A program made the position numbers and the translations under genes. From NCBI RefSeq assembly GCF_004010195.1, contig NC_057756.1:6550788-6614787 (forward strand): a stretch of DNA of 64,000 nt. The letters are read 5' to 3'. Numbering within the stretch: position 1 is the stretch's first letter; every line of letters begins with the position of its first letter. This document shows positions 26,323 through 49,996 of the stretch, in pieces. Source of the stretch: Chiloscyllium plagiosum. Its lineage: Eukaryota. The notes under the pieces are model-generated. The model searched no databases and had not been told where the DNA came from. It saw only the letters and a program-made list of their open reading frames with translations.

Positions 26323-26328
26323 TTTATT
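26323..26328 (-). terminator. Candidate polyadenylation signal of pentraxin A
   Basis: AATAAA on the minus strand, ~390 nt after the stop codon. Confidence 0.5.
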
Positions 26329-26716
26329 TTGTGTATTTGCTCAATGCTTGATTCGCACATAGTCATGAAAGCACAGAGGGATATATAGGGATTAATTATT
26401 TGCAATTACATGAAGGCACATTCATAATTCAGGATAGATTTTGACTCAGGGGGCTCTCTCAGCAGTCTAACCTCTGACACGCGTCCATGATTATTTGCAA
26501 CTGTTGCGCACATCCATAAGCTACAGATTAGTTCATGCATGTTATTGTGGTGCATTCGTTTCTGTATCTACCCATGTTTCACTGTGCTGGCGTGGGTTGT
26601 GTTAAGGAGGATGTGTTGGGGTGTATTTGTGTTTCTGCACTTGTGCCTGATTACAGGAGTGCCCGGAGGAGAGACAGCATGGTGAGTGCCTCAATCAAGT
26701 CCCAATGTGTTTTTTT

Positions 26717-27330
26717 TTAGAAGCAACAATCATGATTATCCTCCACATTCACATTCCCCCTGCTCTCGTATAGCACTGTGTCCCAGTTGATGATGTTACC
26801 CCCAGCGCTGTGACACCCTTGACTGAGCGCCTTGATGTCGTTTGCTGACAGGACATGGTCCCACAGGTGGACATCTGTCAGCTCTCCCACCAAACTCTGC
26901 TTGCTCTCAAACTTGCCCTCCACCAAGTCCTGTTCCTGACCCAGGATGAACGTACCACCGCCTCGGACTACCCCATCTTTTTTCCCGACTTTCCGAAAAC
27001 TCCGGACTCCATTGATCCAGAAAGTGATGGATCCGTTTGAGGAGTCCCAACTCACGCAGATGTGCCTCAGCAGAGCGTCGTTCACCGGGAGGGCGAAATG
27101 GAATGAGTCGCTGCCAAAGTACAGGGACAGCTTTGCGCCCTCTTGCCAGAGCAGCAACTCATTGTCCGTAGCATTTGTGGCATAGGACAACAGGCTGTAG
27201 CCTCGCTTCTCCTCTGAGGCAACCCTCAGGCAGAGGGTGAACGCCGAGAGCTGGGAGAATTCATTGGGCAGCAGCTTGACGTAAATACTGTCGGTTTGAG
27301 TCGAGAAAACTAGCGATTTGCCCAATAAAC
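26717..27330 (-). CDS. Short pentraxin A (C-reactive protein / serum amyloid P-like), pentraxin-domain exon
   Basis: Acceptor tttcctttgtttacag|GT. Motifs AFTLCLR, SYAT..DNELLLW, signature HICVSWDS, ILGQEQD, QSLVGELTDVHLWDHVLS and GNIINW. Stop TAA after DCCF. Spliced product 225 aa. Confidence 0.97.
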
Positions 27331-27568
27331 CTGTAAACAAAGGAAAATTCAGCGTTGAGCCTTTGGAAAGGAACATCTGTGAGATGCAAAGGGAAAGGGA
27401 GAGGCGGAAATGGGGAAAGGACGGATCTTCCAGCCTCCTACTCTTCACGCACTCACACACCTTCAAACAAGCACTGTCGTGCGGTCGCACACCCTCAGCT
27501 ACAAGGAGAGGCTGAATAGGCTGGGCTGTTTTCCCTGGAGCGTTGGAGGCTGAGGGACGCCCTTAAAC

Positions 27569-27893
27569 AGGCGGCACGGTGGCACAGTGGTTAGCACTGC
27601 TGACTCACAGCGCCAGACACCCGCGTTCAATTCCCGCCTCAGGCGACTCTCTGTGTGGAATTTGCACATTCTCCCCGTGTCTGCGTGGGTTTCCTCCGGG
27701 TGCTCCGGTTTCCTCCCACAGTCCAAAGATGTGCAGGTTAGGTGAATTGGCAAGGCTAAATTGCCCGTAGTGTTAGGTGAAGGGGGTAAATGTAGGGGAA
27801 TGGGTCTGGGTGGGTTGCGCTTCGGCGGGTCGGTGTGGACTTGTTGGGCCGAAGGGCCTGTTTCCACACTGTGGGGAATCTAATCTAATCTAA
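27569..27893 (+). mobile_element. HE1-type SINE, full length and young, abutting a short CR1 piece (27499-27562)
   Basis: A-box/B-box head, V-core and LINE-derived tail ending (aatct)n. Confidence 0.95.
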
Positions 27894-28185
27894 GATTGTT
27901 TTTTCTCTCTCTCTCTCGACCAAATACTCATGGTATTCTCTGTCAAACACACACACACACTTTCTCTACCTCATAGACACCGTTACGTTTATAAACAGAT
28001 TTACACACAGTCACACAAAAAACCCACTTATTAGCACAGGCTCTCCAAAGAAGCACAGTTTCTCATTCATATGCGTACACGCATGCATGTCACAGAAACG
28101 CATTGACTTCTGTACACACAAGCACGCGCAAAGAAACAGGAATTCATACACGAAAACACAGAAAAGCACCCACGCAAATGTTGTT

Positions 28186-28800
28186 GGGCAGCACGGTAGC
28201 TCAGTGGTTAGCAGCGCTCCTCACAATACCAGGGGCCCGGGTTCGATTCCAGCCTCGGGGCAACTATCTGTGTGGAGTTTGCACATTCTCCCCGTGTCTA
28301 CGTGGGTTTCCTCCGGGTGTTCCGGTTTTCTGCCACAGTCCAGATTACTTACAGCGTGGCCCAACAAGTCCACGCCGAAGCGCAACCCACCCAGACCCAT
28401 TCCCTTACATTTACCCCTTCACTTAACACTACGGGCAATTTAGCATGGCCAATTCACCTGACCTGCACATCTTTGGACTGTGGGAGGAAACCGGAGCACC
28501 CAGAGGAAACTCACACAGACACGGGGAGAATGTGCAAACCCCACACAGTCAGTCGCCTGAGGTGGGAATTGAACCCGGGTCTCTGGCGCTGTGAGGCAGC
28601 AGTGCAAACCATGCGCAGGTTAGGGTGGATTGGCCATGCTAAATTGTCCCATTGTGTTCAGGGATGTGTAGACTAAGTGCATTAGTCAGGGGTAATGTAG
28701 AGTAATAGGTTTAGGGGATGGGTCTGGGTGGGATGCTCTTTGGAGGTCGGTGTGGACATGTTGGGTCCAATGGCCTGCTTTCACACTGTAGGAATTCTAA
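28186..28800. mobile_element. Nested SINEs: older + strand copy (28186-28341 and 28606-28800) interrupted by a - strand copy (28342-28605)
   Basis: The host breaks at ccacagtcca and resumes at aaaccatgcgcaggttaggg. The insert is the reverse complement of the young consensus. Confidence 0.88.
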
Positions 28801-28959
28801 TTGAAAATATCATTTCCATAAACTGACAAAATCAGTGATACTCATTCACATGGATGAACAGAGAGACCTGCACACACATACACACAAACACGCATTAAGA
28901 CCCGTTCGCATCGGCACACAGAAAAGCATGCAGACACTGAAGACAGAACAGACATCCTA

Positions 28960-29345
28960 TGCTTGTTTGCTTTCCAGCAGAGGAGACTGAAGGCAGAACT
29001 GATTGAAGTGTACAATGATCTAAGTGATATAGTCAGTGAGAAATCTTTCACCTTAGCAGAGGGATTAGTAACCAACTGGAACAGCTTTAAGATAAAGAAC
29101 GGAAATTTCAAGGGGACATTTAAGTTAATTGCATGCAGAGGGTTGCGTGTATCTGGAACGTAAGGCCTTAAGGATTACAAAGGTTGGGACACTCAAGACA
29201 TTTGAGAAGTATTTAATAAGCACTAGAAATTCATTACCATAAAAAAGCTGTGGGTCAAGTGCTGGTAAATAGAAATAGAACAGGTAAGTGCTTGAAGACT
29301 GGCATGTGCACGATGGACTGAAAGGCCTCTGTCCCTGCTGTGAAA
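28960..29345 (+). mobile_element. Old CR1 LINE 3' fragment in the pentraxin A intron
   Basis: ORF reads RRLKAELIEVY..., with tail gatggactgaaaggcctctgtccctgctgt. Confidence 0.75.
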
Positions 29346-29544
29346 AAAAAAACTGACCGAATGTCTACGCCTCCATGGCTCTTTCATGTACAGACACACA
29401 AACACACTCTGACGTAGAGCTGGGTTTCCTTTTGCGATCTGCTACCTCCCTGCTCTGCGTGGCTGCTCATTCTCGGCATTAGAAAATACATTTTGGAATG
29501 AGGATTGCAACCCCGCAGCCTGTTTGCTATCAAAGCAAGCATAC

Positions 29545-29608
29545 CTCCATGGACCAGTCCAGGTAGAATAATGCAGCTGACAAGCCCAAGGAGAAAGAGA
29601 TTCTTCAT
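29545..29608 (-). CDS. Short pentraxin A, signal-peptide exon
   Basis: acgATG, MKNLFLLGLVSCIILPGLVHG plus G|gtatgc. Phase 1 matches the domain exon. Acceptor ccatttacag lies 12 nt upstream of the ATG. Confidence 0.93.
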
Positions 29609-29885
29609 CGTGCGAACAGTCTGTAAATGGTAATGATCAGAGAGTTACGTCCCTAGGTTTGATGCTGCTTAGTACAATCGGATCTGCGGTCCAACACTGA
29701 CATGGAAAACTCAACACCCAGGAGACAAAGTGATATCCCCAATAACTCTTTCCGAGGTTTGGCAGTGCACAGGTTTGGTCCACTGGCAAACATTCCTACA
29801 TCGGTGTAGACGGGCTATTGTTTAAAATCGCATTGAATTGGTCTTCCATGCAGACATTGAAGTTGTCTCTCCTCTGCTATATTTC

Positions 29886-30530
29886 AGCATTGCTGCACTG
29901 TCAGAGGGTCAGTGCTGAGGGAGTGCTGCACTGTCAGAGGGTCAGTGCTGAGGGAGTGCTGCACTGTCACCGAATCAGTGCTGAGGGAGTGCTGCACTGT
30001 CGGAGGGTCAGTGCTGAGGGAGTGCTGCACTGTCAGAGGGTCAGTGCTGAGGGAGTGTTGCACTGTCGGAGGGTCAGTGCTGAGGGAGTTCTGTACTACT
30101 GGAGGATCTGTACTGAGGGAGTACTGCACTATCTAAGGGTTAGTAGTGAGAGAGGTGCTGGAAAAACGCCGCAGGTCAGGCAGCATCCGAGGAGCGGGGA
30201 AATCGACGTTTCGGGCAAAAGCCCTTCATCAGGAGCAGCCCTTCCCTGCTCCTCTGATGCTGCCTGACCTGCTGCGTTTTTCCAGCACCACGTTAATCTC
30301 GACTCTGATTTCCAGCATCTGATTTACCACCGTGAGAGAGTGTGGTACTGTCGGAGAGACAACACTGAGGTACCACTGCAATCTGCTACAATCTGCACCG
30401 AGGGAGTGATGCAATGTCAGAAGGTCAGTGCTGAGGGTATGCTACACTTTCTGTCTGCGAGTTCCGAGTGTGTGCCAATCTGCTTGGCGGGTCAATGCCG
30501 AAGTTGTGCTTCACTCTCGGAAGGCCAGCA
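29886..30530. repeat. 33-bp minisatellite (gtgctgcactgtcagagggtcagtgctgaggga), decaying rightwards and interrupted at 30155-30331
   Basis: About 7 clean units plus degenerate ones. The overlapping ORF has an 11-aa period (VLHCQRVSAEG). Confidence 0.92.
30155..30331. mobile_element. Palindromic Penelope-derived insertion with a 9-bp TSD and an intact minus-strand hammerhead core (30201-30234)
   Basis: TSD gtgagagag at 30146-54 and 30332-40. Inverted arms gtgctggaaaa..gcaggtcaggcagcatc. Minus strand reads CUGAUGA-A-GGGC-UUUU-GCCC-GAAA-CGUC. Confidence 0.8.
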
Positions 30531-30644
30531 GTGAGTGAGGGCCGCATGGCCCAACAGCCAGTACTAAGGGTGCCCTGAGCTGTGTGAATGTCAGTACTCT
30601 AAGAGTTGCCCAGATGAATTGAAAGAATGCGATACATCTGTGCC

Positions 30645-30990
30645 TCTAACGCTCTCTGTCTCTTTCTCCTCACTGTCCATCATTTGCTCTCTCTCTCTCT
30701 CTGTTTCAATTTGACTCCGTGTCTCTTCCTTTAGGCATGCCTTTCTCTCTGTCTCCTTCCTTTTCTCAGTGTCTGTTTCTCCCCGTCTTTCTTCCTCCAC
30801 CTCTTGCCGTCTCTCTCAATTTCTCTCTCTCTCGCTATCTCTCCATCTCTCTCTGCTTTTACCTTCCTCTCTGTCTGTCCCTATGATGTGCACCCCTTCT
30901 GATTTTGTCCCCTCTGCCCCCACTCATTGACCATTTATTTGCATGCCTATTCCCACTGTCCTTACTCTTTCTCTCTTTGTCTCTTTCAGT
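30645..30990. repeat. CT-rich low-complexity tract
   Basis: (ct)n-like sequence. A homologous tract lies at 49449-49760. Confidence 0.8.
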
Positions 30991-30999
30991 TTCCGTACA

Positions 31000-31215
31000 T
31001 CTGTGACTGGTACTTACTGGTTTGGATTGCACTGTGGGATCGGTGTTCTCTCACCCGACATGTAGGAGTCTGTGCAGCTTTGTGCTGTACGAATGAGCAA
31101 TTTAAGGAGCTTGCACAGGAGGAAGGAGATTATTGAGCAATAGAATTACTGCCATTGAACTCCTTATTTAAACAATTCAGGAGCTGACTGAACATTAGAT
31201 GTCAATGCTCCTCAT
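31000..31215 (-). promoter_or_regulatory. Putative non-coding first exon (3' end at 31018) and proximal promoter of pentraxin A
   Basis: Donor CA|GTAAGT (31017-12). The block is colinear with 49776-49996. ATTGAGCAAT at 31132-41 and TTTAAATA at 31172-65. Confidence 0.6.
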
Positions 31216-31549
31216 AAATTTATTTTGATTTGCAAGCATTTAAGTCTTATGTGCAGCTTCAATGCACACATTCAGACGCATATATATCAACAACATGGAT
31301 GTGAAATACAGAAAATCAGAAACTCAGATTACAGACAATCATTCAGAAATGGATGGACACACGCGTGCGTGTACATACAAACACGCACACACACACAAAA
31401 CACACGATACAGACATACACACATGAATACACCCTTACACTTTCTATCTGTCTATCTTAGACTTAATACACATGGCTGCAGTGCATTCAATTTAAATTTA
31501 AGGTTCATTCCGTGCCCCATCCCCAGCCTCAGCCCAGCTTAAAGAACTA

Positions 31550-32030
31550 ATCCCCATAACCTTCCTTATCTCTATGACTTCCCCAAGCCTGACAATATTC
31601 ATTACAGCAATGAGCTCATCCCATCTTTACAACCTTCCTGAACACACACAACTTCTGCAGGTCCTGAAACCCTCTCCATTTTTGTAAGCATCTCAACTGC
31701 AGAATCAATTTGTTTTTGTTGCTTTGCAAAATAAGGCCCAACAATCTCACATATCTCTGTAACTTTCGCTTACCCCTTCAAACCTTCCTACCTCTACAAC
31801 CTTTGACAGCTCTAAACCCATCTCTATCCCTGTAACTTCCTCCAGCCCCACACCCCTCGCTAATTCTGAAAACACCGCCAGTCTCTCCATTTCTCTCTCT
31901 GTCACCTTCTCCCGTTCCTACAACCCTCCATCACTCTGCAATTTCAGCCAGCTTCTACAATCCTCGCTGACTTTCTAAAGTCCTCTAAATCCTGAAATGC
32001 AGCATATCAATGCAACCTCTTCCAGGCTCA
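31550..32030. repeat. Degenerate tandem repeat (ccctccctatctctgtaacctcctccagccctacaa-like), also at ~25930-26060 and ~36640-36830
   Basis: Recurrent ctacaaccct/atctctgtaac units. Confidence 0.55.
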
Positions 32031-32712
32031 CCCCTGACTTGATGCAGAGGGACAGTATCAAAGCTCTCTAACTGAACAATGACTATCCTGATCAGGTCTT
32101 AGTTCACTGCATATCTCACAAAAAGGTGGAATTCCATCAGTATTGGTTCAATAGTGTGTTCTGTGGTGGCTAGTTTATTGATTTCACAGTGTCTCAGTAC
32201 AAATATCGAAAGGTACATCTTCAGTCTTGGAGTCATGAGTCTCTCTCTTGTGCTGAAGATTCAATGGTGTGACCTACAGTCCCATACTGACACCTATTAT
32301 AATTAATTCACTTGGCAGTTCAGCAGAGCTGGTACATTTTCTGATCAACTTGTTGAGAGGCGTTATTAGACACCTCTGGAACAGATGGGACTTGATCCTA
32401 GGTATCTTCGCTCAGAGGTAGGGACACTACCACTGCAACAAAATAACCTTTTGTTGGAACTTAAAATGGAATGCAACTAAGAGTGCTCTAGTATAACTAG
32501 ATTTGTACTAGATCTGTTCTTGATATCGGCATTATCCATTGATTGAGGATGATTGTTATTATATTGAAGAGTCCACCGCCAATGTTTCATAAAATAGTGC
32601 CAGTACCAGGTCTTGAGTTCCAGTGGAGACCGGAAATGCCAGGCTTATTCTTCTTGCAGCATGGTGACAGCAAGAAGTTGCCGTGGGCAAATATATGATC
32701 AACCACATCATC

Positions 32713-33180
32713 GAGTCACACAGTCACAGAGTTGTACAACACGGAAACAGACTGTTCAGTCCAATTTACCCTACATCGACCGAGTTTCCCAAACTAACCA
32801 AGTCCCACTTGTCTGCATTTGGCCCATATCCCTCTAAACCTCTCCAAATGCTTTTTAAATATTGTAACTGTACGTGCATCCATAATTTCCTCTGGCAGCT
32901 CATTACAAACATGGACAACCCTCTGTGTGTAAAAGTCCCTTTTGTATCTTTTCCCCTCTCACCATAAACATATGCCCTCTGGTTTTAGACTTCCTTACCC
33001 TGTGAAAAGTCCTTTATTATTCGTCTTATCTATATCCGTTATGATTTTATATGCCTTAACCTCCTACCCTCCAGTGAAAAATGTCCTAGACTCTCCTGAT
33101 AACTCAAACTCTCCAGTCCTGATGGTATCCCGGTACAGCGTTTCTGTAGCCTCGCCAGTTTAATAATATCCTTCCTGTAG
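32713..33180 (-). mobile_element. CR1 LINE 3' fragment
   Basis: YRKDIIKLARLQKR..LSYQESL..FSLEGRRL and a tail. Confidence 0.82.
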
Positions 33181-33804
33181 CTGTCTATAAATGATGGGTG
33201 AGGATGCAGACTAATTATCAAAATAGATAGCCGCGAGTATAGATTTTCCTTTCAGGCAGTGGTCTGCCATAATCTCGAAATGACAGCCTGAATAGTTTAA
33301 ACAAATCAGTTGGGAACTTAAGTGGAAATTGAATGAAGATATTGAGGGAAATATATCCAGGGTAAGGAGAAATAGCAGGGGAATGGGATTAACTAAATAG
33401 TCTGAAGACCTGAAACAGAGATGGTGGTTGGGAAAGGGTCTTTACGTGTTGCTTCCATTGCGATTTTCCAATTCAAGGCTATACCTGACTGTAAGTTTTT
33501 CTTCAAAATGTACTTGAGCAGGTGGAAGCTAAAGTTGCAGTAGTGCCAGAGGCTGGCTCGCTCATTGCAGAGAGATCAGTGGCTGTGGTTTAACCAGAGG
33601 GTCTCAGGAAAGTGGGAGAGTTGAGCAGGATTTCAGGTTGTCCAATGAATTGAAACCAGGCTGTTAGTTCCACTCTGCATTGCAAACTGGCCATCCAACC
33701 AACGGAGCTAAATGTTGTGCAGGTGCCAAACCACTTGATGCAAGTTTCACAATCGTTTTTACATATTAAGTCGGGGTATTATTTTGTGCATTCCTTTACA
33801 TAAG

Positions 33805-34140
33805 ATCATAAATACAGGAGCAAACGGAGGCAATTCAAGCCCTCGAGCCTGCTCTGCTATTTCCTGCAATTAGGGCTAATCTCACCTCGGCCTCAGCTCC
33901 ATTTTCCTCTCTGTTCTCCATAAGTCTTCAACCCATTATTAATTATAGTTTGTCAATCTCCACATTAAAATTACTTAATGTCTCACTGCATTCTAGTTTC
34001 TAACATTTGCAGATTCACAATCAATTGAGAAAATAACTTATTTTCATCTCTCTTGAAACCACCTAGTCCTTATCCTAAAACTGTGACGTCTCACTCTAAG
34101 TTGCCCTGCTGGTTGAAACGTACGGTTTGCGTCTGCTTTC
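33805..34140 (-). mobile_element. Old CR1 3' fragment
   Basis: cataaatacaggagca..ggcaattcaagccctcgagcctgctctgc tail. Confidence 0.65.
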
Positions 34141-35939
34141 TCAATCTCTCACCTTTTTTTATACTTTAGAATGTTACGTTGCAATTTATTCTACATTTCA
34201 GTTCGCTTCTTTGTGATTACACTCTCTTTCTGTTCACTCCTGCCAAACGCATTTTATAAAATGAACTTTAAAATGGATTGCACTTCTTTAAGTTCACAAT
34301 GAACTAATGAGTAATATGGGAAGAACATTTTAAAAGCTGCATGTCTTTTTTTTAAAGAAAACATTGTTATTGTTTCTCAGGACAGTGGTATCACATGGAT
34401 GTACGTTATCTCCAGTATCCTCATTGCTTTAAATGGCAAACTTGCCACGTAGGGGTGGAACCTGTTAGACATTGCCCTTGGGAGGGTGATATACATTCTT
34501 TCTGGAAAAAAAAACCGCATTGCTCAATTAGGCCTTTGCAACATACATAATTCCATTTCGATTTTCTAGAACTGACAGAACTGCTGAGTGCAATGTCAGC
34601 AAATGAACCGGTGAGCTGTGAACTTTGCTGAAAAAGTGTCCTCTGGTGCCTTGCACCCGATAATAATTCGTGTAGTTTGAGGTTATTATTAATGTGTTGG
34701 GTATAGACCTTGTGATTATTTCTTTAATGCTGATTTTGGACTTCATCAGATATATCAAAATAAAGCAACAACAGCAAATGTTGGTTCAACAGAACGTGTT
34801 TGACATTTATGATAAATCATTTTCTCTAAATTCATAGTGTGCATACGGCCATGCACTCAGGACTTTTACCAATTATCTAGCAGGTCATTATTTTGTCCCA
34901 GTTTTACTGAAATCAAGTTGCACTATCTGCCATGGTGACATTTGAACTCAGGTACCCAGAAGATTATTACAGTCTTGTGGATTAATAATCTCTTGATAAT
35001 GCCACTAGGTTAATGATTCCCACGCAAGTGCCTATCATTTTAGCCCAGGATATTGCTGGAATATGTGCCAGCAGGACCTGATGGCTCTTGATGTTAACAC
35101 GTTTGCGTTCACTAAAGACCCTCAGAGAGAGTCATAGAGATGTACAGCATGGAAACAGACCCTTCACCCGTCCATGCCGACCAGATATCCCAACCCAATC
35201 TAGTCCCACTTGCCAGCACTCGGCCCGTATCCCTCCAAACCCTGACATCTTATCTGGTTTGGTTTACACGTGACTTGACTCATAGCAATGAGGTTTGAAT
35301 TGGAAGTGACCCAACAAGACACCTTAGCTCAAGGGAAACCAGGGATTGACGAAATGCCGTCCATGCCTGCAGCTCAGGTAAATAATAAATGAAAATAAAT
35401 AAATGGAGGAAAACCCAATGTTAAAAAAAGGCCCACCAGTCTCCCGTCCACTCATGGCCTGATGATGAGTTCAATAGATTGGGCGGCCTGACTCTAGTGT
35501 TTAGGATATTATTAGATCAGTGAGGGTTTAGAAAAGGTTGGCAGGATTGGAGAGTTAGTGTTATAAGGATGTCATGGTCGATGGTGGTCATTGCAGCCGC
35601 CATTGCTCCATTCCGAACTGAGTGAAATATTTCCTCAAGGAAACCATATTTACCGTGGGCATGCCCTCAAAACTGTCACTGTTTCCGCTGAGTCGTACGT
35701 CATTGCTAAAGAGCTAAAAACCCTAGAACATGCGGGTGTTTTTTTTAAGATAAGGATGCGTGTTTCTTTTCCCTGTCTGTTTGGCTCGGCATGCAGCCAT
35801 CTGCGCATGCGTTATCTGTGCGCACGTCTTTCTGCGCAGTTCTATCGGGGTTCCTCATTTCCTGCTTCTGCTATAGGATGGGATGCATTCATTTGTGCAG
35901 GCAATGTTTCTCTCATCAAATCACTGAATTCTGCAGGTA

Positions 35940-36330
35940 GATGGAAGACCTGGAAAACTGGAGCTGGAGTGGGCCATTCAGTCCTTCCAGCCAACTCCGG
36001 AATTCAATATGATCATGGCAGACGATCCTACTCAGTATCTCTTCCTACTTTCTCCCCATACCTTCTGATCATTTGAGCCCCAAGAACAATATATAACTTC
36101 TTATTGAAAATTTCAAAGTGTTGCCCTCAAGTGCTTTCTGTAGCAGCTAATGTCACTGCAGGGCTACCTTGTATCTTTAAACTGTGACCCCTTGTTCTGG
36201 AATCACTGACCATCGGGAGCACCCTCCCTGCTGTTACCCTGCCCAGTTTGTCAAAATGTTGTCGGCTTCTGTGTTCCTCCCCCGCTTTCATTCTTCAAAA
36301 CTCCAGTGGATGTAGTCCTAATTATCCAAT
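35940..36330 (-). mobile_element. Old CR1 3' fragment
   Basis: ggagctggagtgggccattcagtcc..aatatgatcatggc tail. Confidence 0.6.
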
Positions 36331-36999
36331 AGCATACTACGCAGTATGCCATGCCACTCCCCTTTCCTCACCTCTGTCGTTGCATTATCCTGCGTTTCAT
36401 CTCTGCCCCCATGTTACTCAAATGTGCCACTGCACTATCATTTGCACCATCTTTCCTCCTCATTCGCCCATACAGACATAAATGTTACAACGTACTGTGT
36501 CTGATATCTCACGTTATACCTTTCATAAAATTCATCATGTCTCAAGTTCTGCTGTCCCTGCCCCTCATGACTAAATTCATAGAGTTGAGCTGTCCCACGA
36601 CTCCCTGAAGCCATACTGAGTTCCCCTATTCATATAAACTCCTCCAACTATACAACGTCTCAATTCCTTCCTCATCCCTCATTCCTAGCTAGCCTGCAAA
36701 CCTCCCACGTAACAGTCCTATCTCTGTGAACCTCTCTGGCCCCTACAATCCTCCCTATCTCTGTAACCTCATTTCTCCCGTGCAACCCTCATTCTCTCTG
36801 CAACCCTCTTCAGCCAGGATCGTCTTCCTCATATCAGCTGTACTGCGTGTGTGTGTGTGAATCTGAGAGAAAGTGACAGAGAATGTGATAGGTCAGGAAG
36901 GCATTCAAACACAGGTGGATTTAGATGAAAAGGGTAGCAACATTTGACAGACATTTTTGTAATATAAACACAGAGACAATTCGAATTTCTGGATGCTAT

Positions 37000-37005
37000 T
37001 TTATT
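37000..37005 (-). terminator. Candidate polyadenylation signal of pentraxin B
   Basis: AATAAA on the minus strand, ~360 nt after the CAA codon that aligns with gene A's stop. Confidence 0.5.
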
Positions 37006-37177
37006 ATTTTGATCAGATAGCAAGCGCTACATTTTAAACTTTGTGCATTTGGGTGATATTATGCAAATCTTCCCTAATCTTATCAAATAGATTTCAAGAC
37101 CAGGTATTAAACATCCGACAAAGGATCATTCACAATCCAGTGCCCAGCCAACTTGAAAGCAGGTACTCTTTCAAGTC

Positions 37178-37983
37178 CTAATTTTGTTTGTGAAGTGCAC
37201 ATTGGTTCTCATGTGATTTGTATATGGTGTGTGTATGGGTGTGTTTGTGTGTATGCATATACGGGGGTGTGGCTGAGTCTGACATTATGTGTGCACATGA
37301 AAATGTGTGAGAGTTAGATTCTGTGTGAATGCATTTTCCTGTCATTGTCAACTCATCACAGGCAGCTTGGTGCTTGCAGTCTTTATTGCCCTGGATGTTG
37401 ATTATTCCCCTGCTCTCGTATTCCACTGTGGCCCAATTGATGATGTTACCCCCTGCGCGGTGGCATCCTCGATTTAACACCTTGATGTCTGTTGGGGACA
37501 GGACATGGTCCCACAGGTTAACATCTGTCAACTCTCCTACAAAACTCTGCTGTCTGTCAAACCCACCCCCTTCCTGGTCCTGCTCCTGCCCCAGGATAAC
37601 AATGCCCCCTCCACCCACCATGCCACCCTGATGGCCAACTTTGCGAAGGCTCCGGACTCCATTGATCCAGAAGGTGATGAGTCCAGTCAGGGAGTCCCAG
37701 GTCACGCAGATGTGTCTCAGTTGGGCGTCCAGCTCTGGGAGGTCAAAATCGAGCAAGTCAGTGTCAAGGCGGAGGGAGAGCTTTGTGTTCTCGTTGTGCC
37801 AGAGCAGTAACTCGTTGTCCTTAGTCGCTGTGGCATAGGAGAACAAGCTGTAACCTCGCTTCGCCTCTGAGGCGGCCCTCAGGCAGAGGGTGAATGCAGA
37901 GAGCTGGGGAAATTCGGCGGGAAGCAGCTTCACGTAAGAATTGTCGGTTTGAGTCTGGAAGACCAGCGACTTGCCTGAGAAAC
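37178..37983 (-). CDS. Short pentraxin B (SAP/CRP-like), pentraxin-domain exon with a 63-aa C-terminal extension
   Basis: Acceptor ttgttttattttaaag|GT. Motifs AFTLCLR, FSYAT..DNELLLW, HICVTWDS and ILGQEQD..FDRQQSFVGE. About 68% identical to gene A by hand alignment. Spliced product 287 aa. Confidence 0.96.
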
Positions 37984-38284
37984 CTTTAAAATAAAACAAT
38001 GAGTTCACATCAGTGCCATTTCGGAATGGAGTGGCAGTGTTATAGAAACAGGAGTGGAAATTTCTCACAATAGCGCAAATCATTCAAGGTGCTGTTCATA
38101 GATGACTAAGGTATACTGACTCCACTAAAATTGCCTGAGAACTACAACCCATCCATCAGGGAAATCTGACACTCAACACTCTCATAAATAGTCTCCAACT
38201 CCAAGCAGCAACCAGAGAAATCGGACAATTCGGATTTCCCTATCTGCGTCATTACCTATGGGGAACTGTTAGGCATATTATCAT

Positions 38285-40740
38285 CATATCATAAGATCAT
38301 AATATTTAGGAGCAGAATTAGACCATTCGGCCCACCATGCAATCACAGCTCAACTCCATTCTCCTGCTTCAACCCCATAGACGTTGGACGCCTTACCAAT
38401 CAAGAACTGATGCATCTCTCACTATCTTAAATAAACACAGTGGGCTCCCCAAACGCACCGCCTTCTGGCTGAGGAAATTCCTCCTTACCACAGTTCTTAC
38501 CTGTTGTCCTTTTACACTGGTCCCAGTCTCTCGAACAAGTGTACACATATTTTACCGAGACTTTTCAGTGTTCTGTATATTTCTGTCAGATCTCACCTCT
38601 AAACTCCATTGAATACAGACTCAGAATCCTCAACTTCTCCGCATTTCACAAGCCCTTTGTCTTGGGGACCATTTCTGTAAACCTCCTCTTCACCCTGTTC
38701 AAGGCCAGCCCATTCTTCCTTAGACAGGATCCCAAAATTGTGAACAATATTTCTAATGCAGTCTGAGCAGAGCCTTTTGCAGCCTCAACACTACATCTCT
38801 GCTCTTTCAGTCCAGTCTTGTTGAAATGAATGCCATACAGAACATAATCAATGCTTCCTATCAAAGTGCATAAACTCACACTTTCTATCTGTCACTCTTA
38901 GTTAGAATCATAGAGTCATAGAGATGTACAACACGGAATCAGACCCTTCAGTCCAACCTGTCCATGCCGACCAGATATCGCAACCCAATGTAGTCCCACC
39001 TGCCAGCACCCAGCCCATATCCCTCCAAACCCTTCCTATTCATGTACTCATCCAGATGCCTTTTCAATTGTACCAGCCTCCACCATTTCCTTTGGCAGCT
39101 AATTCCATACATGTACCACCCGTTGCATGAAAACATTGCCCCTCAGGTCTTTTTTATATCTTTCCCCGGTCACCTTAAACTTATGCCCTCTAGTTCTGGA
39201 CTCCCCCACCCCAGGGAAGAGTATTTGTCTATTTATCCTATCCATGCTTCTCATGATTTTATAAACCTCTACCAGGTCACCCCTCAACCTCCAACGCTCC
39301 AGAGAAAACAGCCCCAGACTATTCAATCTCTCCCAATAGCTCAAATTCTCCAACCTTGGCAACATTCTTGCAAATCTTTTCTGAACCCTTTCAAGTTTCA
39401 CAACATCTTTCCAATAGGAAGAAGACCTGAATTGCACACAGTATTCCAAAAGTGGCCTAATCAATGTATTGTAAGCTGCAACATGACCTTCCAACTCCTG
39501 TAGTCTAGACTCTGACCAATGAAGGAAAGCATACCACTCACCTTCTTCACTATCCTATTTACCGGTGACTCCACTTTCAAGGAGCCATGAACCTGCACTC
39601 CAAGATCTCCTTATTTAGCAACACATTGCAGGACCTTTCCATTAAGTGTAAAAGTCCTGCTAAGATTTGCTTTCCCAAAATGCAGCATCTCACATTTCTC
39701 CAAACTCTATCTGCCACTTCTCAACCCATTGTCCCATCTGATCAAGATCTCATTGTAGTCTGTGGTAACCTTCTTCGCTGTCCACTACACCTCCAATTCT
39801 GGTGTCTTCTGCAACCTTACTAACTATACCTGAAGTCTGAGTGCAGCATCTCCACTTCCTCAACACAACTGGTCCCTCCATCTATCTTTGTGCAATCTGT
39901 AGATAGCAACAATACCCTCAGTTCCTTTGTTCAGCTTGCTAATGTACAACGTGAGCTGTTGTGGTCCCAACACAGACTCCTGCGGAACTAGTCCTTGGAT
40001 GCCATCTTGAAAAAGATCTGTTAATCCCTACTCCCTGCCTTCTGCCTGTCAGCCACTATTCTGTTTAGAGATTGTGCCCGAAACGTTGATTTTCCTGCTC
40101 CTCAGATGCTGTGCTTTTCAAGCAAAACTCTAATCTTAACTACTCTGTTTATGACAGTACCTAGCCCCTGACAGCGTGGACTCTTATTTAGCAACCTCTA
40201 TGTACTGCATCTTGTCAAAGGCTTTCTGGAAATCCAAATAGTTTATGTTCACTGAATTTCCTTCGTCTAACTTGCTTGTTACTCCTGAAAGAATTCTACC
40301 AGATTTGTCAGACATGATGTCCCCTTGACGAAGCTGTTTTAACAAGTATTCTGTAATCTCATCCTTAATCATTGACTGTAAAATATTGCCAATAACAAGG
40401 TCAGGCTAACCGGCCTATATCTTCCTGTTTTCTGCCTTTGTCTCTTTTTAAAACCGGGGTGTTACATTTGCCATTTCCAGCTCCTCTGCGACCCTCTCTG
40501 TCACCAGTGATTCCTGAAAGATCACAACCATAGTCTCCATAACTTTCTCAGCTCTCTCCATCAGAACTGTGGGCTTTACTTCAGTGGGTCTGGGAGATTC
40601 TATCCACCTTCATACCTTACAGCTTCCTCCAAAGTGTATTTTGTATGGAGGGGAATCCAATATTATCCATGACTATCCATTACACTCACCTCTGCCCCCT
40701 AACTTCCGGTCATTCCAGTATGCTGCTCATGACTTCCACG
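38285..40740 (-). mobile_element. Old CR1 LINE (38285-38880 and 39830-40740) with a younger CR1/HER1 copy nested at 38905-39830
   Basis: YNTLIRPLLEYCVQF..VKLERVQKRFARMLP (39099-39494) and YLDFQKAFDK (40184-40372). Confidence 0.9.
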
Positions 40741-41129
40741 ATGTCTAACTCCTGAGTAACTCCACCTGGAAGTTGGCATGGCCCAGATCTCCTGGGTTCC
40801 CTTTTATCAGTGGTCACAAACCTGTTCCCCATGATCTTTTTTCAATATCTCTGCTGGTACATTCAGTGGCACGTTTTGGAGTGTAGCAACTTAATTAAGT
40901 GAATCGCTCTGAAGGAAATGTTGGTGCTCACCATCTGCTTGCTCCCGTCAAATCCTGCAAATTCTGCAGCCACCCTGATGCACCGGACCTCCCTTCTGAT
41001 CTAACCCATTTACCTCCTTGCCTACCTACATCTATATTCCCACCCTCCATATATTTCATCTGCAGTCATACTTACATAGTCGTCCACACATAAGTAACCT
41101 TAACAGGCATGCAGCAAACTCATAGAGAT

Positions 41130-41550
41130 AACAACATAGAATACAGAAGAAGGCTGCATAGGCTGGGACATTTTTCACTGGAGTGTAAGAGCTTGAGATG
41201 CTGCCTTATCGTGGTGTATAAAATTGTGAAAGGTATTAATATAGAGTTAATGTTAGAGTTCTTGTCCCGAAATGGGAGATGACTAGGGGCCACATTTTTA
41301 ATATGAGAAGGTGGAGATTTTAAACAGATATGAGGTGAAAATTTTCTATACAGAGAGTAGTTCTCATGTGCAATGAACTTCCTGAGGAAGTGAGAGATGT
41401 GGATACATGTGCAATGTTTAAAAGATATTTGGACAAGTAAATGAACGGGAATGATTGGGCTAGAAGAAGGCATGCGAGACCAAATCAGTTTGGGATTATG
41501 TTTGGAATGGACTGAAAGGTCTGTTTCCATTCTGTATGACACTATGGCAT
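41130..41550 (+). mobile_element. Old CR1 3' fragment in the pentraxin B intron
   Basis: aggctgcataggctgggacatttttcactggag...ggactgaaaggtctgtttccattctgtatgac. Confidence 0.8.
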
Positions 41551-41983
41551 TGGCCATTCGTCCTTTCAATATGATAATGGCTATCATCCAATTGAAAACC
41601 TTATTTCTGATTGCTCGCCCCATTAAATTTCATCATGTGCCATGGATGGGATTTGAACGAAATCGCCAGAGAATTAAAATTGGGCGTTGGATTACCAGTG
41701 TAGTGATGATGCCACTCTGCCGCATTTCCCAAACTTGCTTCTTTATAACTGAAGCTCACAGAGGTATTTGCTGTGCCACGTGCGCGGTTTTACATATAGA
41801 CACACAAACATACAGTTACAGACACACACACATACACACACAAAGAGATGGAATTAACTGTATTCAGTTTCATGTTAGAATTTAGGAGCTATGTCTTCTG
41901 CACAGCTGCTCACTCCTATTGGGAAATAAAGCTTGCTATGGGGATGACGAACTGTAGCCTGTGATACACCAGAACTGACATAC

Positions 41984-42041
41984 CTCCACTGACAGATCCC
42001 AGCACGAAAAGGCAAGAAGCAAGGAGAATGAAGGTCTTCAT
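41984..42041 (-). CDS. Short pentraxin B, signal-peptide exon (absent from the ORF track)
   Basis: acgATG, MKTFILLASCLFVLGSVSG plus G|gtatgt. Phase 1 matches the exon at 37983. Acceptor acattcgcag lies 12 nt upstream, the same layout as gene A. Confidence 0.93.
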
Positions 42042-43851
42042 CGTGTTTCAAGTCTGCGAATGTTAATGAACAGGAAGTCGGTTACCTTGGTCTGTTGTGG
42101 AAACTCAGAATTCACACGTTAAACTGAACACACAAAAGACACAACATTGCTCTGAGAAACAACCCAAATATGTTAGCATACCAGCTCTGTCTCAGTTGCC
42201 AACTCAGAGTCCAAACATTGCGGGTTCAAGACTCACTCCGCAGCCTGAAAGCAAGCTTCAAAACAATGATTTGTGGGAATTGAGGGATATTGAGGGAAAA
42301 CTGAAATGTCAGTTGTATGTTGCAATGCCAAATGGGTTGCAATGAAGGAGTGCTGCACAGTCAGAGGCACAGTTCTACGTTAGTCGTGCAATATCAGTAC
42401 TTAAGGACATGTAGTGAAGCTGTGTCGCGCTTTTGGGAGGTCTGTAATGAGGAAGTGATGCATATTGTTGGAGAATCAATAGCGAAGAAGCACTAAACTA
42501 TCGAATGGTCAAGATGAATGGAACACTGAACCGTCAGAAGGTATATAATGAGGGAGTCTGACAATATCAGAGATAGTATTGGGTGAGGGTTTGCTGTCCA
42601 AGGGTCACTACTAGGGAGCTCCATATTGTCAGAGAAATGTACCTAGACCTGGATTTAAGTCTTGTCATTTGCTGCCTAAGAGCAATATATATCTACTTCC
42701 ACCACATCGCCTTTCGTATTTCACGACACTTTGGAAGGGGAATAAGTGGTGAGTAATATATTTGACTGACGAACGGGCACCCATATTTCATGAGTAACTT
42801 TCTTATGGAAAATAAACTGCAGCCGTGCACTGAAGCAGGGATTTGCAATTGGTAGTGAACTCTGTGCTACCTACATTTGGCTACTCTGACGAATGCTTAT
42901 TGACTTTCACCTTGAAATTTGATCTCAGCTTGTCTTTCTCTCTTTACTCTCCATGTTAGCTTTTATCTCTGATTTTCTCTTTTTGTCACTTAATCTTTTT
43001 CGTTGTCAATCTGCAGATCTCAGTCAATTCCTCGTTCTGTCCATCTCCCCCTATCGTTCCCACTTTGGGATTCCTCTTTCTCAAGGCTATGTACGACAGA
43101 TCAAAACAGAAGCACAAGGGGCAACAAATTCTTCGATTTTTAAATACAAACAGTAAAAGAAGCCAGACTCCATTACAGAGCTGAAATGCCATGCGAATTT
43201 TGCAATTTGGACATATCGATTGCTACAAGTCCTGTAGGAAATGTGTTGTTCTTGTCACTGCTAAATTAGAGTTTCAGAGAGTCATCAGGAGCCTTTAGGG
43301 TAAAGACTAAATTCTTTGGACGAATCAATTTGCTGCAGTCAGGTGGGAGCAGGTTAACCAGAAGTATCCACAGATGTAATATACAAAACATCTATTACTT
43401 TTTTTGGGAGTGAAACAATGAATAAAACACCCAGAAAATTTAAATAAAAAATCTTTGTGCAACTATGTTCAAGTATTAAATTGAAAATGACCATCACTCT
43501 ACAGACTATATCCTGTCATCAATTGTTAAAATGAACAAAACTGTGAAAGGCAATCAGTCCCATCAGTGAGGCCTAGGCTATTGTTTTCAGTATTTGTCTT
43601 TTCCCTATCGTAATGTTTTCTCCATCATTTCCTGTCAAACCATCTGTCTTATTCTTAAGTGAGTCTGTCTGTATTTGGGATTGAAGTTTACCATTGAGGG
43701 TAGACAACAGTTCTTTATTCTTCATTACAGTTTGCAAATTAAGAAATGCGTTTGCAATAAATAGATACTGTGTCCTGTTAATAACAAAATCTGGTGCAAA
43801 TTTGAGTAATCCTGAGCCACAGTCATTTCGGAAAGCTGATGGTTTAATTGA

Positions 43852-44480
43852 TGGCACAGTGACTCAGTGATTAGCCCTGCTGCCTCACGGCGCCAGGGGC
43901 CCAGGTTCGATTCCAGCCTCGGGGTGACTGTCTGTATGGAGTTGGTACATTCTCCCCGTGTCTGCGTAGGTTTGCTCCGGTTTCCTTCCACAGCCCAAAG
44001 ATGTGCAGGTCAGGTGAATGGGCCAGGCTAAATTGCAAGGCAAAAGTGAGGATGGCAGATGCTGGAAACCAGAGTTTAGATCAGAGTGGTGCTGGAAAAG
44101 CAAAGCAGGTCAGACAGCATCCGAGGAGCAGGAAAATCGACGTTTCGGGCAAAAGCCCTTCATCAGGAATGAGGCTGGGAGCCTCGGGGTGGAGAGAGAA
44201 AATATACAACTCCCAAAGTTTCCAGCCTCATTGCTGATGAAGGGCTCCCGCTCGAAACATTGATTCTCCTGCTCCTCAGATGCTGCCTTACCTGCTATGC
44301 TTTTCCAGTACCACTCTAATCTTGACTCTAAATTGCCCATAGTGTTCAGTGGGGTGTAGGTTTGATGCATTACTCAGGAGAAATGGAAAGTCATTGGGTA
44401 GGGGAACAGGTCTGGGATATTCATCGGAGGTCGGTGTGGACTTGTTGGGCCAAAATGGCCTGTTTCCACACTGGAGAGAA
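43852..44480 (+). mobile_element. HE1-type SINE split by a palindromic Penelope-derived insertion (44037-44327, 9-bp TSD)
   Basis: TSD ctaaattgc at 44028-36 and 44328-36. Intact minus-strand hammerhead core at 44135-44170 and a degenerate + strand copy at ~44232-44265. Confidence 0.88.
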
Positions 44481-45039
44481 ATAATTCTCAACATTTGTCA
44501 TGAACTGTGGAAACTTTTGAGTTTCAGTATTGGTTTACTCTTCCCCATTACATAAGAATGGAAGGTGGTCGTGGTTGTTGGCAATCAGCCGTCTTAAGTT
44601 CAGGTCTTATCCATAGGGACTCCTCTGGCCCATCATCCTCAGCTGCTTCATCAGCTCCTTTGCTTCCATCACAATGTCAGAATGGGTCAAGAGTATAAGA
44701 GTCTATGGGATCGAAAGCAAGGGGCACAGTTGGACATAAAGTTGGCTGTAGCAAAGACGACGATGATGGAAGAATTGTTTTATTGAGGGTCTTATAATGT
44801 AATCATTCTTGTTTGGCAAAATGATGGAAGCAGATTGACAGCACAGTGCATAAGGCTCCTGCATGCACAAGGGTCATCTGCTCAGTCCGCTGTCACTTTT
44901 GCTTTTTCCAATCTTTTCTCCCCAGTCTTTTTACCCAAGTCATACCTACTTACCTGATGTGAGATGTGGGTCAGTGGCAACAGAGGCCTCCGACGTCAAT
45001 ACCAGTCTTTCCAAAAAGCGGCCAGAGAGTAGTCAACAT

Positions 45040-48000
45040 GAGGCATCGAGACAGAGAGCAGGCAGACTGAGACAGTGAGACAGGGAGCAGGCAGACTGAG
45101 GCAGGCAGAGAGAGAGAGGACAGGCCGACTGAGGCAGGGAGAGAGGGAACAGGCAGACTGGGGCAGTGAGAGAGGAAACAGGCAGACTGAGGCAGTGAGA
45201 CAGAGATCAGGCAGACTGAGGCAGGGAGAGAGGGAGCAGGCAGACAGAGGCAGTGAGAGAGGGAGCAGGCAGACTGAGGCAGTGAGAGAGAGAACAGGCA
45301 GACGGAGACAGAGAGGGAGCAGGCAAAGTGAGACAGTGAGAGAAGGAGCAGGCAGACTGAGGCAGGCAGAGAGAGAGGACAGGCCGACTGAGGAAATGAG
45401 AGAGGGAGCAGGCCGAATGAGGCAGTGAGTGAGTGAACAGGCAGACTGGGACAGTGAGAGAGAAAACAGGCAGACGGAGGCAGGGAGACAGAGAACACAC
45501 AGACTGAGGCAGTGAGACAGAGAACAGGCAGACTGAGACAGTGAAAGAGAGAACAGGCAGACTGAGGCATAGAACATAGAAACAGGCAGACTGAGGCAAG
45601 AGAGAAAACAAAACACCGATGCCCGCTACAGGTAAGTAATTTTGAAAAAAACTCTTACCTTAGCTGTAGTCTCCCGGGTTCAACTCAACTCGTCCGCTGC
45701 TCCCACTCAAAAGGCAGGGAGAGAGGGACCAGGCAGACTGAGGCATTGATAGAGGGAACAGGCAGACTGAGGCAATAAGGGAGAGAACAGGTGGACTGAG
45801 GCAGTGAGAGAGGGAACAGGCAGACTGAGGCAGTGAGAAAGGGAACAGGCAGACTGAGGCAGTGAGAGAGGGAACAGGCAGACTGAGGCAGAAAGGGAGA
45901 GAACCAGCAGACTGAGGCAGTGAGAGAGAGAACAGGCAGACTAAGGCAAGGATAGAGGAAGCCGGCAGACTGAGGCAGTGAGAGAGGGAGCAGACAGACT
46001 GAGGCAGTGAGAGAGAGAACAGGCAGACTGAGGCAGGGAGAGAGGGAGCAGCCAGACTGAGGCAGTGAGAGAGGGAGAGGCAGACTGACGCAGTGAGACA
46101 GAGAACATGCAGACTGAGACAATGAGAGAGGGAGCAGGCAGACTGAGGCAGTGAGAGAGGAAACAGGCAGACTGAGGCAGTGAGAGAGAGAACAGGCAGA
46201 CTGAGGTAGGGAGAGAGGGAGCAGGCAGACTGAGGCAGTGAGAGAGGGACCAGGCAGACTGGGCCAGTGAGAGAGGAAACAGGCAGACTGAGGCAGTGAG
46301 AGAAAGAACAGGCAGACTGAGATAGAGAGGGAACATGCAGACTGAGACAGTGAGAGAGGGAGCAGGCAGACGGAGGCAGGCAGAGAGAGAGGACAGGTCG
46401 ACAGAGGAAATGAGAGAGGGAGCAGGCCGACTGAGGCAGTGAGAGAGAAAACAGGCAGACTGAGGCTGTGAGAGAGGAAACAGGCAGACTGAGGCAGTGA
46501 GGGAGAGAACCGGCAGACTGAGGCAGGGAGAGAGGGAGCAGGCAGACTGGGGCAGGCAGAGAGAGGAAACAGGCAGACTGAGGCAGTGAGAGAAAGAAAA
46601 GGCAGACTGAGACAGTGAGAGAGGGATCAGGCAGACTGGGGCAGTGAGAGAGGAAACAAGCAGACTGAGGCAGTGAGAGAGGGAGCAGGCGAACTGAGGC
46701 AGTCAGGGAGTGAACAGGCAGACTGAGGCAGGGAGAGAGGGAACAGGCAGACTGAGGCAGTGAGAGAGGGAACAGGCAGACTGAGGCTATAAGGGAGAGA
46801 ACAGGTGGATTGAGGCAGTGAGAGAGGGAACAGGCAGACTGGGACAGTGAGAGAGGTAGCAGGCAGACTGAAGCAGCGAAAGAGGGAACAGGCTGACTGA
46901 GGCAGTGAGAGAGGGAGCGGACAGACTGAGGCAGTGAGAGAGGGAACAGGCAGACTGAGGCAGTGAGAGAGGAAACAGGCAGACTGAGGCAGAAAGGGAG
47001 AGAACCGGCAGACTGAGGCAGAGAGAGAGCGAACAGGCAGACTGAGGCAAGGATAGAGGGAGCAGGCAGACTGAGGCAGTGAGAGAGGAAACAGGCAGAC
47101 TGAGGCAGTAAGACAGAGAACATGTAGACTGAGACAATGAGAGAGGGAACAGGCAGACTGAGGCACGGAGACAGGAAACAGGCAGACTGAGGCAGAAAGG
47201 GAGAGAACCGGCAGACTGAGGCAGAGAGAGAGCGAACAGGCAGACTGAGGCAAGGATAGAGGGAGCAGGCAGACTGAGGCAGTGAGAGAGGAAACAGGCA
47301 GACTGAGGCAGTAAGACAGAGAACATGCAGACTGAGACAATGAGAGAGGGAGCAGGCAGACTGAGGCAGTGAGAGAGGGAGCGGACAGACTGAGGCAGTG
47401 AGAGAGAGAACAGGCAGACAGAGGCTGGGAGAGAGGGAAAAGGCAGACTGAGGCAGTGAGAGAGGGAACAGGCAGACTGAGGCACGGAGAGAGGAAACAA
47501 GCAGACTGAGGCAGTGAGAGAAAGAACAGGCAGACTGAGACAGAGAGGGAACATGCAGAGTGAGACAGTGAGATAGGGAGCAGGCAGACTGAGGCAGGCA
47601 CTGAGAGAGGACAGGCAGACTGAGGAAATGAGAGAGGGAGCAGGCCGACTGAGGCAGTGAGGGAGTGAACAGGCAGACTGGGGCAGTGAGAGAGGAAACA
47701 GGCAGACGGAGGAATGGAGACAGAGAACAGGCAGACTGGGGCAGTGAGAGAGGAAACAGGCAGACTGAGGCAGGAAGACAGAGAACAGGCAGACTGATGC
47801 AGTAAGGGTGGGAACAGGCAGACTGAGGCAGTGAGAGAGAGAATAGGCAGACTGAGGCAGGGAGAGAGGGAACAGGCAGACTGCGGCAGTGAGGGAGGGA
47901 ACATGCAGACTGAGACAGTGAGAGAGGGAGTTGGCAGACTGAGGAAGTAAAAGAGGGAGCAGGCAGAATAAGGCAGTAAGAGAGAGAACAGGCATACTGA

Positions 48001-48884
48001 GGCAGTGAGAGAGAGAAGAGGCAGACTGAGGCAGTGAGATAGGGAGCAGGCAGACTGAGGCAGTGAGAGAGAGAACAGGTAGTCTGAGGCAGGGAGAGAG
48101 GGAGCAGGCAGACGGAGGCAGTGAGAGAGGGAACAGGCAGACTGAGGCAGTGAGAGAGGAAACAGGCAGACTGAGGCAGAAAGGGAGAGAACCGGCAGAC
48201 TGAGGCAGTGAGAGAGAGAACAGGTAGTCTGAGGCAGGGAGAGAGGGAGCAGGCTGACGGAGGCAGTGAGAGAGGGAAGAGGCAGAGAGGGAGCAGGCAG
48301 ACTGAGGCAGTGAGAGAGGGACCAGGCAGACTGGGGCAGTGAGAGAGGAAACAGGCAGACTGAGGCAGTGAGAGAAAGAACAAGCAGACTGAGACAGAGA
48401 GGAAACATGCAGACTGAGACAGTGAGAGAGGGAGCAGGCAGACTGAGGCAGGCAGAGAGAGAGAGTACAGGCCGACTGAGGAAATGAGAGAGGGAGCAGG
48501 CCGACTGAGGCAGTGAGAGAGGAAACAGGCAGACTGAGGCTGTGAGAGAGGAAACAGGCAGACTGAGGCAGTGAGAGAGAGAACCGGCAGACTGAGGCAG
48601 GGAGAGAGGGAGCAGGCAGACTGGGGCAGGCAGAGAGAGGAAACAGGCAGACTGAGGCAGTGAGAGAAAGAAAAGGCAGACTGAGACAGTGAGAGAGGGA
48701 TCAGGCAGACTGGGGCAGTGAGAGAGGAAACAGGCACACTGAGGCAGTCAGGGAGTGAACAGGCAGACTGAGGCAGGGAGAGAGGGAACAGGCAGACTGA
48801 GGCAGTGAGAGAGGGAACAGGTAGACTGAGGCACGGAGAGAGGAAACTGGCAGACTGAGGCAGTGAGAGAGAGAACAGGCAGAC
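45040..48884. repeat. 29-bp GA-rich satellite (aggcagactgaggcagtgagagagggaac)n, ~130 units, running into an assembly gap
   Basis: Direct inspection. A 7-unit (203-bp) higher-order duplication at 46981 and 47184. A unique island at 45611-45711. Confidence 0.97.
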
Positions 48885-49775
48885 NNNNNNNNNNNNNNNN
48901 NNNNNNNNNNNNNNNNNNNNNNNNNNNNNNNNNNNNNNNNNNNNNNNNNNNNNNNNNNNNNNNNNNNNNNNNNNNNNNNNNNNNNNNNNNNNNNNNNNNN
49001 NNNNNNNNNNNNNNNNNNNNNNNNNNNNNNNNNNNNNNNNNNNNNNNNNNNNNNNNNNNNNNNNNNNNNNNNNNNNNNNNNNNNNNNNNNNNNNNNNNNN
49101 NNNNNNNNNNNNNNNNNNNNNNNNNNNNNNNNNNNNNNNNNNNNNNNNNNNNNNNNNNNNNNNNNNNNNNNNNNNNNNNNNNNNNNNNNNNNNNNNNNNN
49201 NNNNNNNNNNNNNNNNNNNNNNNNNNNNNNNNNNNNNNNNNNNNNNNNNNNNNNNNNNNNNNNNNNNNNNNNNNNNNNNNNNNNNNNNNNNNNNNNNNNN
49301 NNNNNNNNNNNNNNNNNNNNNNNNNNNNNNNNNNNNNNNNNNNNNNNNNNNNNNNNNNNNNNNNNNNNNNNNNNNNNNNNNNNNNNNNNNNNNNNNNNNN
49401 NNNNNNNNNNNNNNNNNNNNNNNNNNNNNNNNNNNNNNNNNNNNNNNNTCTCTTTGTTTCTCTCTGTCTCCTTCAATCTGTCTGCCTCTTTCTGCCTCTC
49501 TCTCTTTCTTTCTGTCTCTGTTTCTCTCTGCCAATCTCACATTCTCTCTCTGTCTGTCTTTCTTTGCATCCGTCTCTCTGTCTCTCTGTTTGTTTTGCTT
49601 TTCACTACTCTGTTCTTTGTTTCCCTGTTTCTCACTGTCTCTCTGTTTCTATCTCACACTCTCTGTCTCTGTTTCTCTTTCACTGTCTGTACTGCTTCAT
49701 CTCTCTCTTTCTCTTTTTATCCCTATCCTTGTCCTTCTCTTTCTCTTTCTTACTTTAATTTCAATCTCAATGAAC

Positions 49776-49996
49776 TGTGAATGGTACTCACTGTTTTTGA
49801 ATAGAGTGAGAAAGTTGAAATTTCTCAATCGACGACAAAGATTCTGTACAGTTTGATTGAGCAATTTAATGAGTTTCAACAAGCAAGAACATATTTTCCA
49901 GAAAATGGACTTTCCCCTTCTGGACTTTTCGCAAGAGATTTGACTTGTTTAAACAATTCGTTATCTATTTGAACATTAAATGTTTAACCTCCTCAT
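49776..49996 (-). promoter_or_regulatory. Putative non-coding first exon (3' end at 49792) and proximal promoter of pentraxin B
   Basis: Donor CA|GTGAGT (49791-86). Homologous to 31000-31215 (ctgtga.tggtact.actg, tgagcaatttaa.gag, tttaaacaattc, tgaacatta). C/EBP-, STAT- and NF-kB-like motifs are present. Confidence 0.6.

Follow-up and report, generated by a model that had tools for sequence, protein, structure and literature searches.

In a window of 64,000 nucleotides, the whole stretch of Chiloscyllium plagiosum DNA that was analysed, two genes on the reverse strand, termed A and B, are with high probability intact short pentraxins of shark type that stem from an old tandem duplication, with a spliced non-coding exon 1 in gene A and likely the same arrangement in gene B. 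In gene A the additional exon is evidenced by a spliced contig and by the same join in public protein models, and in gene B it is predicted from homology to a conserved upstream block.

Gene structure and the conserved upstream block

The coding part of gene A consists of exon 2 (29545..29620), with 12 nt of untranslated sequence, the signal-peptide codons starting from the ATG at 29608, 64 coding nucleotides and a phase-1 donor, and of exon 3 (26323..27330), with the pentraxin domain, the stop at 26717 and a 3' UTR that extends to an AATAAA at 26328. In gene B, the signal exon (41984..42053) has 12 nt of UTR, the ATG at 42041, 58 coding nucleotides and a phase-1 donor, and the domain exon (37000..37983) has its stop at 37178 and an AATAAA at 37005. 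The phase-1 signal exons and the AG placed exactly 12 nt before the ATG had been proposed in the initial annotation and are read directly from the sequence of both genes. The coding introns are of the GT-AG type and in phase 1, both reading frames are intact, and the products of 225 aa (A) and 287 aa (B) are 68.6% identical over the domain. A comparison with public proteins showed P0106, P0005 and P0111 to be letter-for-letter the products of A, B and a paralog, A', that is described below; P0106 and P0005 are filed under the names CRP-like or mucosal pentraxin-like from Chiloscyllium plagiosum.

Upstream of the signal exons, A and B have in common a block of approximately 200 bp, located at 31000..31215 in gene A, where it comprises exon 1, its donor and likely the proximal promoter, and at 49776..49996 in gene B, where by homology to block A a putative non-coding exon 1 ends at 49792. 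The alignment runs from 31215 in A and 49996 in B down through both donors, with 135 of 226 columns identical and 33 gap columns, and a consensus donor stands at the end of each block, GTAAGT after 31018 in A and GTGAGT after 49792 in B. With 500 local shuffles as a reference (mean 23.0, sd 3.6, maximum 39), the block alignment scored 107. When 416 tiles of the window were scanned, block A scored 93 on block B and the tiles away from both blocks averaged 25.5 (sd 3.9, maximum 41), placing the pair about 17 standard deviations above the window background. Flanking tracts are present in both cases, on the intron side with 81-84% purine on the sense strand, on the upstream side TG-rich, strongly so in A and loosely in B.

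The 5' UTR intron of gene A (29621..31017, GT-AG) measures 1397 nt. The predicted intron 1 of gene B (42054..49791) has 7738 nt, within which lie a GA-rich tandem array (~45023-48884) and an N gap (48885-49448); this length is approximate because the gap counts 564 N. The sizes of about 1.4 kb and 7.7 kb given initially are thus reproduced. Note that the purine-rich array at window positions 45023-48884 spans ~3.9 kb and adjoins the 564-N gap, and that the long open frames found there resemble repeat artefacts.

In a sensitive comparison of the A and B units, whose tally sets aside dispersed repeats and short low-scoring matches, the common parts are the block, the signal exon, the domain exon and the remnant of one intronic tandem array, the latter at a like distance from the acceptor in both genes. 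This pattern fits a duplication of the whole unit followed by divergence of the introns. The block may have been conserved because the proximal promoter, the first exon and its donor lie within it, while the introns diverged.

Transcript evidence and competing readings of the first exon

Public sequencing runs, of which 24 were listed and four compared over positions 30930-31300, were searched for the predicted gene A join 31018->29620, and the join was found in one of the four, in a single contig of run X13. This contig, of 1219 nt and depth 140, matches 31181-31018 without a difference up to the donor, from which point its letters are those of window positions 29620-29591, defining a non-coding exon 1 of gene A (31018..31181) of at least 164 nt whose 5' end lies at least as far upstream as 31181. 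Runs X3 and X18 yielded no contigs over 30930-31300, with ~2% of X18 read, and the contig from X1 matched paralog A', not gene A. The length of the X13 contig fits three exons (164+76+979 = 1219), which places its end near 26352, shortly before the AATAAA at 26328, and the fraction 979/1031 = 0.95 equals the word share of X13 in the run listing. The library type is without record; as the join is spliced, the contig is taken to derive from cDNA. A processed retrocopy is an unlikely source, with the window copy the only one at 100% among 13 matches in a protein search and the domain exon present at 100% only once in the assembly.

The first exon had initially been described as hidden, and this part of the claim did not hold, as the join is already used in two public models from the sister species Chiloscyllium punctatum, P0108 and P0110. 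Both contain a peptide ..VQSKP|T..M that only an in-frame join of exon 1 to exon 2 can give; P0108 fuses B and A, and both models read exon 1 as coding. In gene A, an in-frame stop 12 codons before the join excludes an N-terminal extension. Since the A, A' and B joins all have in-frame stops upstream of the ATG, we reject a coding first exon and consider exon 1 to be untranslated. The extra non-coding exon proposed for gene A is thus borne out by the spliced X13 contig together with the join in P0108 and P0110. Gene A has two upstream ATGs, at -150 with 17 codons and at -56 with 19 codons, of which A' shows the one at -150 alone, and B has one at -113 (8 codons); a conserved regulatory upstream ORF finds no support in this comparison.

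The contig from X1 raises the question whether the block is an internal UTR exon and the main promoter is located further upstream, splicing into it. It is 108 nt long at depth 30, comes as one contig from one run, and shows six differences from A, the same count as A' has there. With one mismatch, the 29 letters at its upstream end fall on C47:8114942-8114970, where a dispersed repeat of presumed LTR class ends (at least 41 matches listed, 1870 candidates). The join, G000:C47:8114971 -> 8125279, leads from a GT donor after the repeat over 10,307 nt downstream to an AG within the A' block and skips a broken gene copy, B'. The equivalent AG of block A (31109..31111, reverse strand), the site used in A' by this far-upstream exon, is intact in A, but no use of it was seen there. 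However, the X13 contig reads through this AG to 31181 with 0 differences, B is without the AG, and the part of the block that lies 5' of it is conserved as well. We consider the internal exon unlikely.

For gene B, a non-coding exon 1 supplied by block B and joined as 49792->42053 is likely, a prediction made from homology, as the donor is in register with that of A and all three intact genes (A, A' and B) retain its GT, which is lost in the broken copy B'. A variant reading would accept exon 1 for A and have B use another first exon, within the N gap or from an LTR-like repeat, leaving block B as an enhancer or a relic. Such a repeat, its class again presumed, lies upstream of block B at 50724..51221 on the reverse strand, in the same sense as B, and has two GT donor-like sites ~10 nt past its end at 50724; a repeat-derived first exon was seen once for A', the B intron contains the 564-N gap, and the B join is predicted from homology. 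Nevertheless, the B donor and the adjoining intron bases are in register with A even though the flanking introns no longer align, and in the broken copy B' this donor is gone, which makes a different first exon for B quite improbable. Copies of the LTR-like repeat at window positions 50724-51221 and 9196-9697, both on the reverse strand, are 70% alike.

A dispersed repeat or a chance similarity, leaving two-exon genes as in mammalian CRP, draws on the low-complexity flanks and the limited sensitivity of the genome search, but it is largely refuted for A by the spliced X13 contig, stands against paralog-only matches and a score ~17 sd over the window background, and is hardly credible. The search of genome DNA, which will miss repeats under ~80% identity as block B was not found with block A as query, returned two matches for block A (itself and A') and three for block B (itself and, in two pieces, B'), each of them next to pentraxin exons on the same contig. 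The possibility that the block is a dispersed genomic repeat had been named in advance as one that would overturn the proposal; with matches at pentraxin paralog loci alone, down to that sensitivity limit of ~80% identity, we reject it.

Concerning the promoter, block A contains TATA-like motifs near 31170 and 31104, and both lie downstream of position 31181, where the X13 contig starts. As at least 164 nt of the block are transcribed in this contig and contigs cannot show starts, the promoter part of the block is putative; transcription would begin near the 5' part of the block. Acute-phase genes are characterized by liver expression induced by IL-6/IL-1 through HNF1, C/EBP and STAT3 sites, and the block shows what we take to be HNF1-, forkhead- and C/EBP-like motifs, a lead but no evidence. 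According to the available part of PMC11211361, HNF1 and C/EBP sites are used in the human CRP promoter. The corrected gene model moves the proximal regulatory region 1.4 kb upstream of the signal exon in A and likely 7.7 kb in B, and studies on shark acute-phase promoters should look at this upstream region.

Paralogs and family history

An inverted copy of the B-A pair, termed A' and B', lies on the same contig as A and B at ~8.117-8.132 Mb. A' is intact, 86% identical to A, and has the same three-part layout with the AG 12 nt before the ATG, whereas B' is broken, with an insertion in its block, a lost donor, no signal exon and frameshifts. A third copy of the segment at 7.379 Mb retains a broken domain exon; no signal exon was found in the 28 kb upstream of it and no convincing match to the block (best score 49 vs 93 for A/B). 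At the level of the segment, two further inverted copies, G000:C47:8110844-8135000 and G000:C47:7370256-7388923, are 67-88% alike. The family thus comprises five copies on one contig, three intact and two broken, and one more on another, contig C27. The C27 paralog is 54% identical and likewise has an AG 12 nt before its ATG, but ~22 kb upstream of its signal exon, a region with two N gaps, yielded no homologous block (best score 39 vs 93 for A/B). Between A and A' the blocks are 86% alike, a value that is uninformative on selection because the neighbouring non-coding DNA is 74-88% alike.

The initial proposal of a tandem duplication of the unit was followed up by a phylogeny of 56 proteins (46 from cartilaginous fish and 10 amniote SAP/MPTX-like), which placed A and B in separate clades within one joint clade. 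Support was 100/98 for the A-type clade, 100/98 for the B-type clade and 100/94 for the joint A+B clade, and the A and B clades each hold bamboo, epaulette, zebra and whale shark rows. As both contain all these lineages, the A/B duplication is older than the separation of bamboo sharks from zebra and whale sharks; the A/A' duplication is later than A/B, yet precedes the split of Hemiscyllium and Chiloscyllium. With a midpoint root and a sampling of amniote SAP/MPTX-like proteins that comprised neither mammalian CRP nor teleost rows, all 46 cartilaginous-fish rows stand apart from the 10 amniote rows (100/100), and in this tree A and B do not appear as one-to-one orthologs of SAP or MPTX.

The 12-nt acceptor also occurs in the distant C27 paralog, and the 5' UTR intron is therefore likely ancestral in sharks rather than special to the A/B pair. 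For other sharks this view is based on protein models, not on their DNA: two Mustelus isoform models have exactly four residues in common before the Met and diverge upstream of these, and models from Heptranchias and Pristiophorus have similar short extensions that are less decisive.

Two peculiarities of public models were encountered. In Stegostoma, A-type and B-type proteins (P0003, P0007, P0105) are grouped as isoforms X1-X3 under consecutive accession numbers, and three of these entries are for one and the same A-type protein, a filing that points to common or alternative 5' exons in the public model. In place of a signal peptide, the Hemiscyllium model P0001 begins with a peptide resembling intron 1 of A (window ~30480-30545, reverse strand), and this start is probably a mis-model.

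Products and relation to known pentraxins

Both products have a single pentraxin domain after a short leader, taken as a signal peptide by eye, and are without a long N-terminal domain. PF00354 was found on P0005, and residues 22-217 of P0106 match solved CRP and SAP chains, as in short pentraxins, a group further marked by cyclic oligomers and Ca2+-dependent binding of ligands; the best solved relatives of P0106 are the CRP 4pbp/4pbo (E 2e-44), human CRP (4e-38) and SAP (2e-36). The pentraxin signature H/SxCxS/TWxS (PMC5446266) is present as HICVSWDS in A and HICVTWDS in B. With vertebrate CRP, SAP (APCS) and MPTX (PF00354), the two genes have in common a hydrophobic leader on its own phase-1 exon, a whole domain on one exon and the HxCxS/TWxS motif. 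Calcium in pentraxins is bound by an Asp-Asn pair, a Glu-Gln-Asp loop and a distal Glu/Asp and Gln, and, judged by motif, these ligands are kept, with DNE and GQEQD in both A and B and a distal E..Q in A and D..Q in B.

The phosphocholine pocket, on the contrary, is not kept. In human CRP it is formed by Phe66, Thr76 and Glu81, as stated in the accessible text of PMC6503050; the corresponding positions are a gap or Trp, Tyr and Ser in A, by alignment with residue numbering counted manually, and Trp, Arg and Leu in B in an ungapped manual register. Family knowledge makes it most likely that the products are secreted Ca2+-dependent pentraxin lectins for microbial or damaged-cell ligands. As the pocket residues differ, these ligands are likely other than phosphocholine bound in the mammalian CRP mode.

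A further difference to vertebrate CRP, SAP and MPTX is the C-terminal tail of B (37178..37375, reverse strand), 65 residues with 11 His and 4 Cys. Neither this tail nor the further gene copies on the contig appear in the initial annotation. Among four ortholog models from other carpet sharks, three have retained the tail, with 63-65 residues and 76-92% identity, compared to 81-95% for the domain; the tail of the Hemiscyllium model differs (41 residues, 59%), and the same tail DNA carries frameshifts in B'. This conservation suggests that the tail may be under selection. More speculatively, and with the odds rather against it, the ancestral UTR intron might uncouple promoter and coding sequence so that paralogs could be rewired by new first exons, among them exons from LTR-like repeats that splice past a dead neighbour as observed once for A', and the B tail might provide a novel metal-binding or cross-linking function, undescribed for short pentraxins.

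Compared to mammalian CRP, the extra spliced 5' UTR intron sets gene A apart from the two-exon, one-intron layout; human CRP has one intron according to the available part of PMC11211361. CRP/SAP genes of fish and frog show local tandem duplications, with 7 clustered copies in zebrafish, and have 2 or 3 exons, and elephant shark CRPs fall into 'group II' (PMC5446266). Note that the three exons of the salmon, gar and frog genes are all coding (PMC5446266), while the shark layout consists of one non-coding and two coding exons. The accessible part of PMC6795676 reports CRP and SAP proteins in the serum of cartilaginous fish and a pentraxin in the skin mucus of a skate; the accessible parts of PMC9207270 and PMC10707392 do not treat the A and B genes, and in the literature searched, with most subscription journals outside its scope, no description of a non-coding first exon in shark pentraxins was found.

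The layout of gene A is real but unremarkable as a variant: a UTR intron passed through tandem duplication and is already reflected in public models. The wider significance of this layout is small because UTR introns and tandem duplication are common in vertebrate genes. At this locus, 'shark CRP' stands for a small, lineage-specific family whose ligand pockets are altered, a point of relevance to CRP assays in sharks.

Within this family, A differs from A' at residues ~58-100, in the region of the ligand pocket (P0106 vs P0111 and P0005), where A' resembles B, which may reflect divergence of A or gene conversion. A has also gained two N-glycosylation sequons, at residues 74 and 120.
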